A DNA stretch of 25,866 bases from a virus (Duplodnaviria > Heunggongvirae > Uroviricota > Caudoviricetes), in the IMG/VR virus record IMGVR_UViG_2724679538_000003. The stretch is one strand, 5' to 3'. This document shows positions 1,232 to 10,865 of the stretch, one piece after another. The position numbers and the translations under genes were made by a program. Numbering within the stretch: position 1 is the first letter of the stretch; each line of letters starts with the position of its first letter. The notes beneath the pieces were generated by a model. It had not been told where the DNA came from. It saw nothing but the letters and a program-made list of their open reading frames with translations, and made no database searches.

Positions 1232-1452
1232 TCCGGAATATTTTCAAACGGTTTACCAATCAGACTTTCCGTTGTCCTCGTCCGGGTCAGTGGTACACCA
1301 CGCCTGCAGGGCATGTTCTACGTGTTAGCCTGGTTGACCGTGAATGTCAGAAAGTGATTTGTGAACCGCTGGGCCGTAATTACCGCGTCAGTATGCCGCT
1401 TATAGCCTTTCGCTCTGGAAAAAACATGAAGCATCTCGGAGGTGCAGCATGA
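1228..1452 (+). CDS. Hypothetical small basic protein (74 aa), translationally coupled
   Basis: ATGA overlap with the Rha stop (1228-1231) and again with the start of the next gene (1449-1452); an operon-internal position typical of real small phage genes. No recognisable family. Confidence 0.5.
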   Translation: MIRNIFKRFTNQTFRCPRPGQWYTTPAGHVLRVSLVDRECQKVICEPLGRNYRVSMPLIAFRSGKNMKHLGGAA

Positions 1453-2279
1453 GTATGGAGCTGATGGTTAAAGCGATGAAAATTCGAGTGGGTAATCCAT
1501 TGCGAAAACTGGTTCTGATCAAGCTGGCTGATAACGCCAGCGATCAGGGTGAGTGCTGGCCCAGCTACCAGCATATTGCTGACCAGTGCGAGATTAGCAA
1601 ACGTTCTGTGATGAATCATATTGCGGCTCTTTGTGATTCCGGACTGGTAAAAAAAGTCATCCGGAAAGGTGAAAAAGGTAACTCAAGTAATATCTATCTC
1701 CTTCATCTTGATGGTGCAGGAGATTCACTAGGGGGTAGTGCAAATAATTCACTATCTGGTGCAGCAAATTCACCAGGTAGTGCAGGAGTTGCACCAGGGG
1801 GTGGTGCAGGAGATTCACCCAGAACCAGTCACTCTTTTGAACCAGTCAAAGAACCAGTCAAAGAACCAGTCAATGAACCAATAGCTGTTGGTGCATCTGC
1901 TGATGAGTCTGTGCGAGTTCGTTCAAACCGACCGGAATACTCTCCGGAGTTTGAGCTGGCATGGCTGGCATACCCCAAACGTGCTGGTGGCAATTCAAAA
2001 TCTGCAGCCTTCAAAGCCTGGAAAGCCCGTTTGAATGAGGGGGTAAAACCCGAAACTATGCTGGAAGGTGTGAAACGCTACGCGGGCTGGGTATCTGCGA
2101 TGGGTAACAGCGGCACACAATTTGTTAAACAGGCTGTCACGTTCTTTGGTCCGGATCGTCATTTCGAAGAATCCTGGGAAGTTCCTGCGGTATCGGCAGC
2201 CAGATGCGAAGACCCGTGCTTCAAAGCCAGTTACAACAATGTGGACTACAGCCAGATCCCGGCAGGGTTCAGGGGGTGA
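1449..2279 (+). CDS. Replication initiator, lambda O-like (N-terminal HTH domain, repeat-encoded linker, C-terminal domain)
   Basis: GGAGG at 1438-1442, ATG at 1449. N-terminus (RKLVLIKLADNASDQGECWPSYQHIADQCEISKRSVMNHIAALCDSGLV) is wHTH-like. The central low-complexity linker is encoded by iteron-like DNA repeats, the same layout as lambda O/ori. Confidence 0.75.
   Translation: MSMELMVKAMKIRVGNPLRKLVLIKLADNASDQGECWPSYQHIADQCEISKRSVMNHIAALCDSGLVKKVIRKGEKGNSSNIYLLHLDGAGDSLGGSANNSLSGAANSPGSAGVAPGGGAGDSPRTSHSFEPVKEPVKEPVNEPIAVGASADESVRVRSNRPEYSPEFELAWLAYPKRAGGNSKSAAFKAWKARLNEGVKPETMLEGVKRYAGWVSAMGNSGTQFVKQAVTFFGPDRHFEESWEVPAVSAARCEDPCFKASYNNVDYSQIPAGFRG
1713..1818. repeat. Putative replication origin iterons: five 16-bp imperfect palindromes (gGTGCAnnAnnTtCAC) at 21-24 bp spacing
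   Basis: Copies start at about 1713, 1737, 1758, 1779 and 1803; the first and last are identical (ggtgcaggagattcac). Each has internal dyad symmetry (GTGCA...TtCAC). They lie inside the initiator gene, as lambda ori lies inside O. Confidence 0.65.
1822..1880. repeat. 12-bp tandem repeat (gaaccagtcaaa, about 3.5 copies plus one degenerate copy) encoding an (EPVK)n linker
   Basis: Direct tandem copies at 1839-1850, 1851-1862 and 1863-1874, partial at 1875-1880, with a diverged copy at 1822-1833. They translate to EPVKEPVKEPVNEP in the initiator frame. Confidence 0.8.
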
Positions 2280-2281
2280 TC

Positions 2282-2761
2282 ATGAGCCTGATGAGTGAGA
2301 TTCAAAAATTCATTGAAAGCAATCCTGGATGTACGACCGGTGATATTGCGAATGCGTTTGCATACTTTCCACGTCCCCGTGTACTGAATACGACCAGTAA
2401 GTTACGCCAGTGCAGACGTGTCGCTTATCGCAGTGAAGGCAAAACACACAGGCATTTTTCTCGCAAGGCTGTGTTGCCACCTGAGCCGGTGCTGAAGCAT
2501 ATGAGTGTGGCCAGTAAAAGCTACGTCGGCACTAATGATCAGCGGGTGATTTTGCGCCTGATTCAGCAGGCAGAAGATCTGGAGTCCAGAGGTTTATTCC
2601 GTCGTGCTGCAACGGTGTGGATGGAGGCATTCCGTGAAAGCCACTCCCAGTCAGAACGAAACAATTTTCTGGCGCGTCGTGAGCAGTGTTTACGGAAAAG
2701 CAGCAAGCGCGCTGTATCGGGTGATGAGTGGTATCTGTCAGGGAATTACGTGGGGGGTTAA
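2282..2761 (+). CDS. PerC-like transcriptional regulator (159 aa; C-terminal PerC-like motif)
   Basis: AGGGGG SD at 2271-2276, ATG at 2282. Motif LESRGLFRRAATVWMEAF matches the PerC/Pch family signature (LE..G..RRAA..W) as I recall it. The longer track ORF 2204.. has no SD. Confidence 0.6.
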   Translation: MSLMSEIQKFIESNPGCTTGDIANAFAYFPRPRVLNTTSKLRQCRRVAYRSEGKTHRHFSRKAVLPPEPVLKHMSVASKSYVGTNDQRVILRLIQQAEDLESRGLFRRAATVWMEAFRESHSQSERNNFLARREQCLRKSSKRAVSGDEWYLSGNYVGG

Positions 2762-3087
2762 TGACGACGTTAACTCAATGCCAGCAGCAGGTGCTGGATA
2801 TGCTGATTTCTTATCAGAAAGAACGTGGTTTCCCGCCAACCAATCAGGAGGTGGCAGCCATGCTGGGATACCGTTCGGTGAATGCAGCGGTGGAGCATCT
2901 TCGCGCACTGGAGAAAAAAGGCGTCATCACGATAAAGCGTGGCGTGGCCCGGGGGATAACGCTTCATACCGTAGTGAAGGACGACGACAGCGAGGTGGTC
3001 GGGATTATCCGCGCACTGCTTGCCGGTGAGGAAAACGCCAGGCTGCGTGCAACTCACTGGTTACATGAGAGGGGCTTGAAAGTATGA
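2761..3087 (+). CDS. LexA-like N-terminal DNA-binding-domain protein lacking the S24 peptidase domain (108 aa)
   Basis: TAATG overlap with the upstream stop. Residues 1-69 (MTTLTQCQQQVLDMLISYQKERGFPPTNQEVAAMLGYRSVNAAVEHLRALEKKGVITIKRGVARGITL) align position by position with the E. coli LexA N-terminal wHTH as recalled; the C-terminal 40 aa show no protease motifs. Confidence 0.75.
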   Translation: MTTLTQCQQQVLDMLISYQKERGFPPTNQEVAAMLGYRSVNAAVEHLRALEKKGVITIKRGVARGITLHTVVKDDDSEVVGIIRALLAGEENARLRATHWLHERGLKV

Positions 3088-3473
3088 AGCTTATCCTGCC
3101 TTTCCCGCCCAGCGTGAACACGTACTGGCGACACCCTAACAAAGGGGCGTTTGCAGGTAAGAGCCTGATAAGCGCGGCGGGGCGAAAATTCCAGAGCGCG
3201 GCGTGCGCTGCAATAGTTGAGCAGTTACGACGTCTGCCGAAACCAACGTCGGCACCTGCTTCAGTGGAGATCGTGTTGTTTCCTCCTGATAACCGGATCC
3301 GCGATCTGGACAACTATAACAAGGCGCTGTTTGACGCCCTGACCCACGCGGGGGTGTGGAAAGACGACAGCCAGGTGAAAAGAATGCTGGTGGAGTGGGG
3401 ATCGGTTATCCCGGAAGGGAAGGTCGAGATCACTATCTGTAAGTACGAGAAAACGGCGGGTGCAGCTGCCTGA
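3084..3473 (+). CDS. rusA: Holliday junction resolvase RusA
   Basis: ATGA overlap with the upstream gene; 129 aa; sequence (MKLILPFPPSVNTYW...DLDNYNKALFDALTHAGVWKDDSQV) is typical of RusA. Confidence 0.85.
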   Translation: MKLILPFPPSVNTYWRHPNKGAFAGKSLISAAGRKFQSAACAAIVEQLRRLPKPTSAPASVEIVLFPPDNRIRDLDNYNKALFDALTHAGVWKDDSQVKRMLVEWGSVIPEGKVEITICKYEKTAGAAA

Positions 3474-3492: not shown

Positions 3493-4302
3493 ATGAATAA
3501 TCTGATGGTCATTGATGGTATTGAAGTTCGTCGTGATGCTTATGGGCGTTACAGCCTGAACGATCTGCATCGCGCAGCAGTAGCATCTGGTGCAAATGCC
3601 AGAACCAAGGAGCCAGGAAAGTTTCTTTCCAGCCAACAAACTGTTGAGCTTGTTCATGAATTAACCAACACCCAGAATTTGGGTGTTGACCCGGTGAGTG
3701 TGATTCATGGGGGAAATGAACGCGGAACGTATGTCTGTAAGGAACTGGTGTATGCCTATGCAATGTGGATCAGCCCGTCATTCCATCTGAAGGTGATCCG
3801 TACTTTCGACATGGTAACCAGCGCACCGGAAAAATTATCCGGACAGGCTGCTGACAAGATGCAGGCTGGTGTGATTCTGCTGGACTTTATGCGCCGGGAA
3901 TTAAACCTGTCTAACTCTTCAGTGCTTGGTGCCTGTCAGAAACTCCAGGAGGCTGTTGGCTTACCGAATCTGGCACCGCGCTATGCCATTGATGCTCCTG
4001 CTGACGCGCCTGATGGCTCAAGCCGCCCCACGCTGTCACTGAGTGCACTGCTGAAGCAGTATGGTATCCGCCTGACGGCTAATCAGGCATATCACCAGAT
4101 GGTGAAGCTGGGGATCGTTGAACAACGCGAACGATACAGCCGTACCGCGATTAACAACATCAAAAAATTCTGGTCGCTGACGGCGAAAGGCTGCATGTTC
4201 GGCAAGAACATCACCAGTCCTGCAAATCCGCGCGAGACGCAGCCGCATTTCTTCGAATCCCGATTCCCTGAGCTGTTAAAGCTGCTCGATACCGTTCATT
4301 GA
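3493..4302 (+). CDS. KilA-N domain protein (antirepressor-like)
   Basis: AAGAGGAG SD then ATG at 3493. N-terminus (MNNLMVIDGIEVRRDAYGRYSLNDLHRAA...ELVYAYAMWISPSFHLKV) is KilA-N-like; the C-terminal half is unassigned. Confidence 0.75.
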   Translation: MNNLMVIDGIEVRRDAYGRYSLNDLHRAAVASGANARTKEPGKFLSSQQTVELVHELTNTQNLGVDPVSVIHGGNERGTYVCKELVYAYAMWISPSFHLKVIRTFDMVTSAPEKLSGQAADKMQAGVILLDFMRRELNLSNSSVLGACQKLQEAVGLPNLAPRYAIDAPADAPDGSSRPTLSLSALLKQYGIRLTANQAYHQMVKLGIVEQRERYSRTAINNIKKFWSLTAKGCMFGKNITSPANPRETQPHFFESRFPELLKLLDTVH

Positions 4303-6693: not shown

Positions 6694-6995
6694 AAAAAAA
6701 TTCCTTAATACTGATAACTGGGCGCACTATACACACGTTCCTGAAGAAAGCTATAGTTTTTTGATGGGGTTGAAGATGGCTGGATGTCTAAAATAAACAT
6801 TGCTTCATATGTTCAACTATGCGTTAATGATTGCGTCGGTTTGAAGAACAGACGATATACGAAGTAGTTTACTAAAGCAGTTCTCATTTCAGGTGTTATT
6901 CACTTATTCCTTCTTTGAGTCTCTCCAATTAAGTACGAAGTCGTTTCTGTTATACAAGCCATTTATGCCGAAAGGCTCAAGTTAAGGAATGTAGA

Positions 6996-7211
6996 ATGTC
7001 AAATAAAATGACTGGTTTAGTAAAATGGTTTAACGCTGATAAAGGTTTTGGCTTTATTTCTCCTGTTGATGGTAGTAAAGATGTGTTTGTGCATTTTTCT
7101 GCGATTCAGAATGATAATTTTCGAACCTTATTTGAAGGTCAAAAGGTTACCTTCTCTGTAGAGAGTGGTGCTAAAGGTCCTGCAGCAGCAAATGTCATAA
7201 TTACTGATTAA
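6996..7211 (+). CDS. cspB: Cold-shock protein, CspB-like
   Basis: 71 aa, [38 protein letters not shown]...; canonical CspA-family RNP motifs; about 290-bp upstream leader typical of csp genes. Confidence 0.9.
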
Positions 7212-7492
7212 AATTCATAGTTTGTCTGTATACGATAACGAAGAAGGCTGATGCCTGAGTGGAGATACAGACAGAGTGGTGAATATTGGATCTCTTTAAT
7301 AAATAGTAAGGAGGTCCAATACATGAAACAATGGCCAGCATATTTGGCAATAACTTAATCAGGAAAAGTATGCTAACCATTGTGGTGAAGTGCAGGTTTG
7401 CTGCATGAATAGTTTTACAGCAGAAGCTAACTGCTGGCATAGCAAAACAAAGTGCGTAAGTGGATGACTCCCACAAAAAGTACCACAATATT

Positions 7493-10084: not shown

Positions 10085-10447
10085 ATTAATATTAAATCGG
10101 ATTATTTTTAGCGCTGAATGTGAAATTTAAATAAAAAGGACTCTTCCATGAGTCAAAATCCTTGAAATCTTAAGGGTAAGATAAAAGGTCATTAGACAGA
10201 ATGACACGTTTTATTAATAAATAAAGCTATTGTTTCATTCGTGTGTTTTTCTTTACAAAAGTAATCCTTGCTATGGTTGGTTAATCATGCGTTAATGGTG
10301 TTCTGGTTTGTTACAAAATTATCTGAAGCAGTCATTGTTATAATTTTATTATTTGTACCTCTTGAGATTTCCTTGTTGGTTTTTCTCTCTGATATTTTTT
10401 TTCGGACCATTCTGCCCAAGGGCTAACTTCTTCAAAAGGTAATAATG

Positions 10448-10660
10448 ATGTCTAACAAAATGACTGGTTTAGTGAAATGGTTTAACCCTGAAAAAGGTTT
10501 TGGTTTCATCACGCCGAAAGATGGTAGCAAAGATGTGTTTGTCCATTTCTCAGCTATTCAGAGCAACGATTTCAAAACGTTAACTGAGAATCAGGAAGTC
10601 GAATTTGGTATTGAGAACGGACCTAAAGGCCCCGCGGCTGTTCATGTAGTGGCACTTTGA
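10448..10660 (+). CDS. cspI: Cold-shock protein, CspI-like
   Basis: [45 protein letters not shown]...; about 350-bp AT-rich leader upstream. Confidence 0.9.
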
Positions 10661-10865
10661 GGTAGAAAATATTACAAACCATATTCACTTTAGATGCCCG
10701 TGTTGCCATGGTTCGCAGTATAGAACATCATCTTTTGATGTTTCTGACAGGAATCCTTTCGGGGCAAAATGTATCTTTTGTAAATCAATGATGATTACAT
10801 TTGATAATATTTCACAATACTTAAATGTTAGCCGTCTGTCGTTAGATTTAAGAAAGTGAAAATGA

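Follow-up and report, generated by a model that had tools for sequence, protein, structure and literature searches.

A stand-alone LexA-type DNA-binding protein with a conserved helical tail in the early operon of lambdoid Escherichia coli phages: a candidate RecA-insensitive occupant of LexA operators

Gene organization of the locus

The IMG/VR virus record IMGVR_UViG_2724679538_000003 (25,866 nt; 'the window' below means this whole stretch of DNA) carries, between its replication gene and rusA, two short genes that are the subject of this study: one for a 159-aa PerC-family protein (start MSLMSEIQ) and one for a 108-aa protein (start MTTLTQ) with the DNA-binding head of the SOS repressor LexA. 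The window covers the early-right, lysis and morphogenesis regions of a lambda-like E. coli prophage, and many E. coli chromosomes hold prophages 97–98% identical to it over its length. Both open reading frames (ORFs), which an initial annotation had proposed from the sequence, are real and lie on the + strand, with the ATG starts at 2282 and 2761 favoured by family alignments over longer mechanical ORFs (Table 1).

The replication gene is the upstream boundary of the cassette, its stop lying 2 nt ahead of position 2282. The stop TAA of the PerC-like gene and the start ATG of the LexA-like gene have one base in common (GGTTAATGACG, about 2756–2766), a G-rich Shine–Dalgarno-like run precedes this overlap, and the LexA-like stop in turn overlaps the rusA start as ATGA (3084–3087). 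A promoter scan found no sigma-70-like site upstream of the PerC-like or the LexA-like gene. Because of these tight overlaps and the lack of such a site, the two genes look like ordinary members of a long early transcript, expressed only upon infection or once the prophage is derepressed; a promoter of their own for lysogenic (moron-like) expression was rejected on the same scan.

The order of genes is clearest in an annotated relative (L001, NZ_CP073589), in which an integrase, a cI-type XRE repressor, a cro-like HTH gene, ymfL, Rha, a small ORF and a replication protein are followed by yfdN (PerC family), a 'LexA family transcriptional regulator', rusA, KilA-N, DUF968, the Q antiterminator, the lysis genes, and terminase through tail. 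The Q gene is also present in the window by profile search, and the lambdoid early operon context confirms the earlier placement of the LexA-like gene in the nin region.

Table 1. Features of the PerC-like/LexA-like locus, with positions counted from the first letter of the window.
Feature	Position	Strand	Basis
Replication initiation protein (HTH_36 + DnaD/O-like C-terminus)	1449..2279	+	Pfam PF13730 2.8e-11; phrog_270 7.7e-85
YfdN-type PerC-family gene, 159 aa	2282..2761	+	Pfam PerC 1.4e-9; phrog_1324 6e-65
N-terminal winged helix of the PerC-like protein, residues 3-60 (predicted)	2288-2461	+	AF2
Three-helix PerC domain, residues 87-142 (predicted)	2540-2707	+	AF2; bears the Pfam PerC match
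TAATG stop/start overlap of the PerC-like and LexA-like genes	2758..2763	+	read from sequence
Stand-alone LexA-type DNA-binding protein gene, 108 aa	2761..3087	+	Pfam PF01726 3.3e-19; phrog_362 2.9e-58
Winged-helix DNA-binding domain, residues 1-68 (predicted)	2761..2964	+	AF2: H6-22, H28-35, H40-52, E56-58, E66-68
Recognition helix, residues 40-52 (predicted)	2878-2916	+	AF2 model
C-terminal helical hairpin, residues 74-103 (H74-87, H93-103; predicted)	2980..3069	+	AF2 pLDDT ~87-88
rusA (Holliday-junction resolvase)	3084..3473	+	Pfam RusA 2.4e-15
KilA-N domain gene, 19 nt after rusA	3493..4302	+	Pfam KilA-N 2.4e-22

The DNA-binding head is of the LexA type

The DNA-binding domain (DBD) of the 108-aa protein is a true LexA-type winged helix. 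Residues 1–65 cover the whole Pfam LexA_DNA_bind model (PF01726, positions 1–65 of 65) with 68.9 bits against a cut-off of 23.7, and the best sequence matches found with phmmer in the PDB are the E. coli LexA entries 1lea, 1jhh and 3jso (E ~1e-15), in an alignment that is gapless over LexA residues 2–70. Ungapped identity to E. coli LexA residues 1–70 is 50%. In the AlphaFold2 (AF2) model of the protein, which has a mean predicted local distance difference test score (pLDDT) of 83, the DBD superposes by Foldseek on crystal and NMR structures of LexA with a root mean square deviation of 1.1–1.4 Å over 67–70 residues (~50% identity); weak matches of the model include the BlaI-like Rv1846c and BlaI. 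Profile, sequence and fold matches thus all point to LexA, as the initial annotation had claimed for the winged helix-turn-helix (wHTH), and none of them places the domain in another wHTH family.

The base contacts listed for E. coli LexA are made by S39, N41, A42, E44 and E45 (PMC3091678). Four of the five are retained in the phage protein (S39, N41, A42 and E45), and position 44 is Val. Across subfamilies at 40–53% identity, the commonest residues are S39 (100%), N41 (91%), A42 (73%) and E45 (64%), to be compared with a mean of 65% for the commonest residue over residues 1–70 in the same subfamilies, while the wing residues R64, G65 and I66 (RGI) are invariant. Judged from these residues, binding of the LexA-like protein to SOS boxes is plausible.

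A conserved tail stands where LexA has its protease

A Pfam profile search of the 108-aa protein gave no match to Peptidase_S24, and since the protein ends at residue 108, with the rusA start at its stop codon, there is no room for such a domain. The NCBIfam lexA equivalog TIGR00498 scores 69.8 bits against a cut-off of 110.95 and is matched at model positions 1–91 of 203 only. With this sub-cut-off score, and without the S24 peptidase and dimerisation domain (Ser119/Lys156 dyad) whose absence had been noticed from the start, the protein falls outside the LexA repressor proper. LexA dimerises via the very domain that is missing here, so heterodimers with host LexA are not expected.

What the initial annotation had missed is the conserved helical hairpin at residues 74–103, which follows a linker (residues 71–74) predicted to be disordered. 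The tail motif IIRALLAGEENAR..A..WL.ER is almost invariant among close relatives, and it is still recognisable in short proteins (103–135 aa) that are only 40–53% identical (P0123, P0126–P0128, P0141, P0176, P0179, P0210 and P0235). According to the model, a conserved helical hairpin of ~35 aa stands in for the protease and dimerisation domain and is likely a replacement dimerisation module. Three proteins of a metagenomic library (P0131, P0132 and P0137) carry two tandem LexA DBDs in one chain, again without S24, and would be single-chain 'dimers' of the LexA head.

Homology to the linker and cleavage region of LexA extends into the tail, with VGIIRALLAGEE aligned to VGRVAAGEP by HMMER and by the lexA model. 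The stretch LLAGEE (residues 86–91, 3016–3033), with A88–G89, aligns near VAA^GEP of LexA, where the scissile bond is Ala84–Gly85, and lies within a predicted helix; A88–G89 is kept in close relatives only, not in distant subfamilies. If the model is right, LLAGEE is a vestige of the LexA cleavage loop that has become helical. The alignable vestige speaks for a decaying, functionless remnant of a captured lexA, a reading that is hardly credible given a ratio of nonsynonymous to synonymous substitutions (dN/dS) of 0.09–0.16 (pairwise against 55 other alleles, 56 in all), a length of 106–108 aa and the conserved tail, in a gene carried by 2233 of 5426 E. coli genomes. Because dN/dS is low, the length is uniform and the tail is conserved, we regard the LexA-like protein as a selected two-module protein and not a broken lexA. 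Likewise, a pseudogene was rejected by dN/dS and conservation, and a frameshifted lexA was ruled out by the length of ~106–108 aa that is uniform across the family.

The upstream YfdN-type protein

The 159-aa protein carries the PerC domain that had been assigned to it, with residues 96–148 matching Pfam PerC (PF06069) at 38.5 bits, above the gathering cut-off of 22.6, and with a full-length match to phrog_1324 (6e-65). The AF2 model (pLDDT 78; wHTH blocks 86–91) predicts an N-terminal winged helix, a disordered linker at residues 64–79 and the three PerC helices. The N-terminal domain superposes on the wHTH proteins DsrD, SmtB and MecI/BlaI at 1.5–2.8 Å over ~60 residues, with weak E-values. 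The window allele is a minority variant, 68–71% identical to the common 164-aa YfdN. Below threshold, the PerC domain (residues 92–139, 2555–2698) also matches the NCBIfam ANR (AraC negative regulator) model, at 22.2 bits against a cut-off of 32, which hints that the PerC and ANR helical domains are related.

In published assays, activation of ler was at least 4-fold with PchA, PchB and PchC, less than 2-fold with PchE and absent with PchD; yfdN was treated as the K-12 PerC homologue, and YfdN itself was only deleted from the reporter strain (PMC5931665). The role of PerC/Pch proteins as virulence activators, which the initial annotation had extended to this gene, is not simply transferable to the two-domain YfdN-type protein, as PchD and PchE activate ler barely or not at all.

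Distribution and gene neighbourhood

The LexA-like gene is found in 41% (2233/5426) of complete E. coli genomes and in phages SfII, SfIV, SfV, mEp460, cdtI, Ayreon and the Shiga toxin (Stx) 2a- and 2c-converting phages, with 40–46% identical relatives in mEp390 and Klebsiella phages. It is thus widespread and already annotated (orf42 of SfV as 'unknown', the mEp460 gene as 'LexA DNA binding domain protein'), so that the domain call is not new; it is absent from the usual K-12 literature.

Its neighbourhood was compared in 80 IMG/VR loci with 96–97% relatives of the protein (the close relatives) and in loci fetched for three distant subfamilies, which were reached via single distant proteins searched in viral contigs. 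The cassette of the close relatives consists of Rep, PerC, an optional Dam, LexA-like, RusA, KilA-N and DUF968, and then Q. The PerC gene directly adjoins the LexA-like gene in 32 of 79 close loci, and in the remaining 47 the two are separated by a Dam methylase. The inserted gene, absent from the window, encodes a 228-aa Dam-type N6-adenine methylase (in the L002–L081 set). PerC–RusA or Dam–LexA-DBD fusions occur among database proteins (P0308, P0025 and P0092) and point to frameshifts or to variants of the cassette, with some loci lacking the LexA-like gene.

In three subfamilies the 3.5 kb upstream of the LexA-like gene contain a PerC-domain gene in 72/74, 62/72 and 43/49 loci, and it is directly adjacent in only 30/74, 1/72 and 0/49. 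In the distant subfamilies PerC is 0.9–2.9 kb upstream or absent; the upstream PerC of L174 is a 78-aa PerC-only protein, and in L082 a PerC gene was not found in the cassette. The two genes therefore share one conserved nin-region cassette, whereas the TAATG coupling is a trait of the window allele arrangement and not of the family, because Dam often intervenes and PerC is rarely adjacent elsewhere. The coupled pair noted initially is thus seen in the window as an overlap and is not obligate.

These data bear on the view, put forward in the initial annotation, that the PerC-like and LexA-like proteins form a coupled unit that hijacks host regulation by acting on virulence and SOS regulators. 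The TAATG overlap and the frequent upstream PerC gene agree with it, but direct adjacency is the exception, the PerC-like protein is of the YfdN type described above, and both genes sit in a lytic early operon without a promoter for lysogenic expression. We consider a hijack pair improbable.

The constant neighbour of the LexA-like gene is rusA. It lies immediately downstream in all evaluable loci of the window family (79/79) and of two distant subfamilies (2/2 and 77/77), and in a fourth subfamily it is adjacent in 37 of 55 loci and one gene further in 17 of 55. That one neighbour should stay invariant, mostly with overlapping stop and start, across subfamilies 44–53% identical would agree with a role other than transcription control, as a DNA-binding accessory of recombination or replication that, for instance, targets or modulates the resolution of junctions. 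However, both fold and residues match a sequence-specific repressor head, the tight packing of nin regions makes adjacency alone weak evidence, and no RusA partner of the LexA-DBD kind is known. Such an accessory role is highly improbable.

Candidate operators and proposed role

Our preferred reading is that the LexA-like protein is an early-lytic, RecA-insensitive occupant of LexA operators that dimerises via its hairpin while host LexA is cleaved, and we put its probability at about 0.4. Sequence comparison suggests a phage paralogue of the host SOS repressor. Because its gene lies downstream of the replication gene and ahead of Q in the early rightward (pR) operon, without a promoter of its own, it would be expressed only after prophage derepression or infection. 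The hairpin would then dimerise the protein, and the dimer would bind CTGT-type LexA operators, namely host SOS boxes and the strong boxes of many phages that carry the gene. Presumably insensitive to RecA* and resistant to ClpXP as well, the dimer would re-impose or time repression during host LexA cleavage, with possible effects on SOS or phage genes. The YfdN-type protein (wHTH + PerC) would be a second early regulator of the same cassette, not an obligate partner. A surrogate of this kind is workable because the LexA N-terminal domain (NTD) alone keeps some SOS-box binding and repression, and its removal by ClpXP is needed for SOS activation (PMC10584840); the fragment is removed by ClpXP and Lon via signals exposed by cleavage (PMC3159453).

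Candidate operators were scored with a 20-bp position weight matrix (PWM) built from 19 E. coli SOS boxes. Among the 80 close loci, 51 carry boxes that score 17 bits or more, 73 in total, compared with 2 in shuffled sequence. Three boxes (TACTGTTTTTACATACAGTA, TACTGTATTTATGAACAGTG and TACTGTAAAAATAAACAGTG) are recurrent and strong (21–27 bits), and the recurrent sites are inside the cI-family gene, in the rusA/KilA-N intergenic region and at the start of a methylase gene downstream of Q. From the sequence, these phage-borne boxes are plausible targets of the LexA-like protein.

The cI-internal box (TACTGTTTTTACATACAGTA, 25.8 bits) lies ~230 nt from the start of the cI-family gene and just upstream of where the window begins. 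Diverged cI alleles, including those of other subfamilies, differ in its spacer but retain the CTGT/ACAG arms, and 18 of 19 evaluable loci with this box also carry the LexA-like gene. The cI-family repressor of L001 that bears the box has an S24 domain. Extended arms, TAATACTGT-N8-ACAGTATTA, are seen at L001:10950–10975 (25.8–27.2 bits) and also in L002–L081, L105, L121, L174 and others. A scan for promoters at the cI-internal box of L001 found none, and hand inspection gave weak hexamers only; the possibilities for this box are a LexA roadblock or an internal or antisense promoter. The rusA/KilA-N box (TACTGTATTTATGAACAGTG, 21.6 bits; L039:10765–10784; at +764 in relatives, within an intergenic region of ~160 bp) is present in 17–18 of the 80 close relatives, and it hints at a promoter under LexA control from which KilA-N, DUF968 and Q could be transcribed independently of cI. 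The methylase box (22–25 bits) lies over codons 3–9 of the gene for a 350-aa DNA methyltransferase downstream of Q (L053:13921–13940, L084–L088, L187, L206 and L228) and is kept across diverged alleles; it could reflect a LexA-regulated methylase, or be conserved only as coding sequence.

The recurrence and strength of the three boxes, the arms kept inside cI and the company of the gene in 18 of 19 loci would equally fit a protein that is only a phage-internal feedback repressor, replacing cleaved LexA at the phage's own cI-internal, KilA-N and methylase operators to switch them off or time them after induction. None of the three boxes is in the 25.9-kb window, where rusA and KilA-N are 19 nt apart with no operator between them, strong boxes occur in only ~10–14% of distant-subfamily loci, and linkage over ~4 kb in near-identical phages is not independent evidence. 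This narrower role is distinctly unlikely.

Several observations weigh against the occupation of LexA operators that we propose. In the window, no PWM match reaches 10 bits; the one exact CTGT-N8-ACAG (186–201) scores below 10 bits and is not significant, being equalled in 30 of 100 shuffles; a 1-mismatch search gave nothing significant; and CTGT/ACAG pairs with spacings of 0–14 are enriched at none. SOS boxes as local targets in the window were rejected on these exact, 1-mismatch, PWM and spacing searches. The SOS-box binding considered in the initial annotation thus stays plausible from S39, N41, A42 and E45 and the literature on the LexA NTD, but the window is without an SOS-like operator. 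In the distant subfamilies, only 8/80 and 8/56 loci have a strong box within ±8 kb, so phage-borne boxes are not obligate partners of the gene; should the protein read SOS boxes, the target shared by all loci would be the host regulon. The enrichment in close relatives may reflect shared ancestry, from which it is inseparable because the linkage spans ~4 kb of near-identical phages and all loci were chosen as gene carriers. Position 44 is never Glu in the family, and A42 and E45 vary; with Glu44 systematically lost and 42 and 45 variable, the DNA specificity may have shifted. Literature searches found no functional or experimental study of the protein.

A further point of this kind comes from gp6 of the Bacillus thuringiensis tectivirus GIL01, a truncated LexA homologue with a DBD and no catalytic domain, which activates the late promoter P3 and binds there, at -43.5, to a palindrome of its own (Fornelos et al. 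2018, PMC6182141). By this precedent, proteins of the kind can come to differ in their targets and serve as activators. The main rival to our reading is therefore a dedicated phage regulator like gp6, in which the diverged head reads a phage-specific, non-SOS operator, activating or repressing a phage promoter, and host SOS is untouched. The non-Glu position 44, the variable positions 42 and 45 in the family and the lack of SOS boxes in most distant-subfamily loci fit it. Nevertheless, S39 and N41 are near-invariant, the window protein retains A42 and E45, the window has no recurrent palindrome or promoter-associated CTGT repeat at any spacing, and the Q antiterminator serves late transcription, which leaves no vacancy for a late activator. 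We judge a gp6-like role unlikely.

Significance

If our reading is correct, an occupant of LexA operators that ignores RecA* would be a viral handle on the SOS switch, which sets off prophage induction, mutagenesis, colicin production and the release of Shiga toxin. A broader claim, that lambdoid E. coli phages including the Stx2a/2c-converting ones encode a RecA-proof LexA surrogate which re-closes LexA operators in lytic growth once host LexA is destroyed and so ends the inducing signal, is doubtful. Were it true, the surrogate would turn off both the host SOS regulon and such LexA-controlled competitors as antirepressor-induced prophages and colicins, besides setting the timing of SOS-boxed genes in the phage itself. 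With 41% of complete E. coli genomes carrying the gene, and with its presence in Stx2a/2c, cdtI and Shigella serotype-converting phages, any effect on SOS timing, on toxin output or on cross-induction of co-resident prophages would be broadly relevant. If the protein regulates only a phage promoter, it is a routine addition to nin-region biology.

Other features of the window

Upstream of the replication gene, Rfam gathering-level matches identify the isrK Hfq-binding small RNA (61 bits, 443–519, +) and the C4 antisense RNA (81 bits, 544–631, +), both within a long ORF (83–1231) annotated in relatives as a 382-aa 'Rha family' protein. Only the part encoded by 707–1228 carries the Rha Pfam domain. 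The 443–631 region looks like an RNA-controlled antirepressor module of the P1 immI/Gifsy-1 isrK type, and the first ~200 codons of the annotated Rha ORF are probably non-coding. A 59-aa ORF (MQELNRWFRDGRGLYVHVIRWEPETQRVIYLRKDY..., 232–411, +) overlaps the annotated Rha ORF in another frame. It has an end-to-end match to phrog_1343 (1.8e-36) and is kept at the protein level in the distant loci L093, L125, L216 and L227; it is likely a real small gene that usually goes unannotated.

Two cspA-type thermoregulator 5′ leaders (Rfam RF01766) are found in the Q-to-lysis and post-lysis regions, at 6835–7274 (+, 156 bits) and 10290–10706 (+, 112 bits), and correspond to cold-shock-like genes (cspB/cspI type) annotated in relatives. 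A search against a defence-system library gave sub-threshold noise only.

Comparison with known systems

The closest and only studied precedent of a DBD-only phage LexA homologue as a regulator is GIL01 gp6, whose expression from an early operon follows derepression and which works next to host LexA as a DNA-binding regulator, its DBD having 44% identity to that of its host LexA (PMC6182141). Set against the published description of gp6, the LexA-like protein is likewise a phage-encoded LexA DBD without the catalytic domain. In contrast to gp6, which is essentially a DBD alone, it has the extra conserved hairpin at residues 74–103, and whereas gp6 belongs to a tectivirus of a Firmicute host, the LexA-like gene sits in a lambdoid nin region beside rusA and coexists with the Q antiterminator. 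The gp6 palindrome overlaps the -35 of its late promoter; no SOS-like or CTGT-based palindrome is conspicuous anywhere in the window, the stretch after Q included. A truncated phage LexA would extend from Bacillus tectiviruses to enterobacterial lambdoid phages, in a different architecture.

With E. coli LexA itself (1LEA, 1JHH and 3JSO) the protein shares the DBD fold, four of the five base contacts and the wing RGI, but it is without the Ser119/Lys156 dyad, has Val for E44 and a hairpin of its own, and is encoded by a phage in a lytic operon. It also resembles the N-terminal cleavage fragment of LexA (residues 1–84), a DBD without the protease domain; unlike this fragment, it ends in ...ERGLKV after a folded hairpin, so it should lack a newly exposed C-terminus.

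The upstream protein shares the PF06069 domain with PerC/PchABC of enteropathogenic and enterohaemorrhagic E. coli and with K-12 YfdN, and belongs to the prophage-encoded YfdN group, its L001 counterpart being annotated yfdN. PerC and PchABC are single-domain proteins of ~90–100 aa, whereas this one has 159 aa and joins a wHTH, a linker and the PerC helices. Finally, in architecture the LexA-like protein is analogous to repressors of the BlaI/MecI type, which combine a winged helix with a short C-terminal helical dimerisation module. The analogy is one of architecture only: BlaI/MecI are inactivated by proteolysis in the dimerisation region, and the LexA-like protein has neither a sequence relationship to them nor a sign of such cutting.

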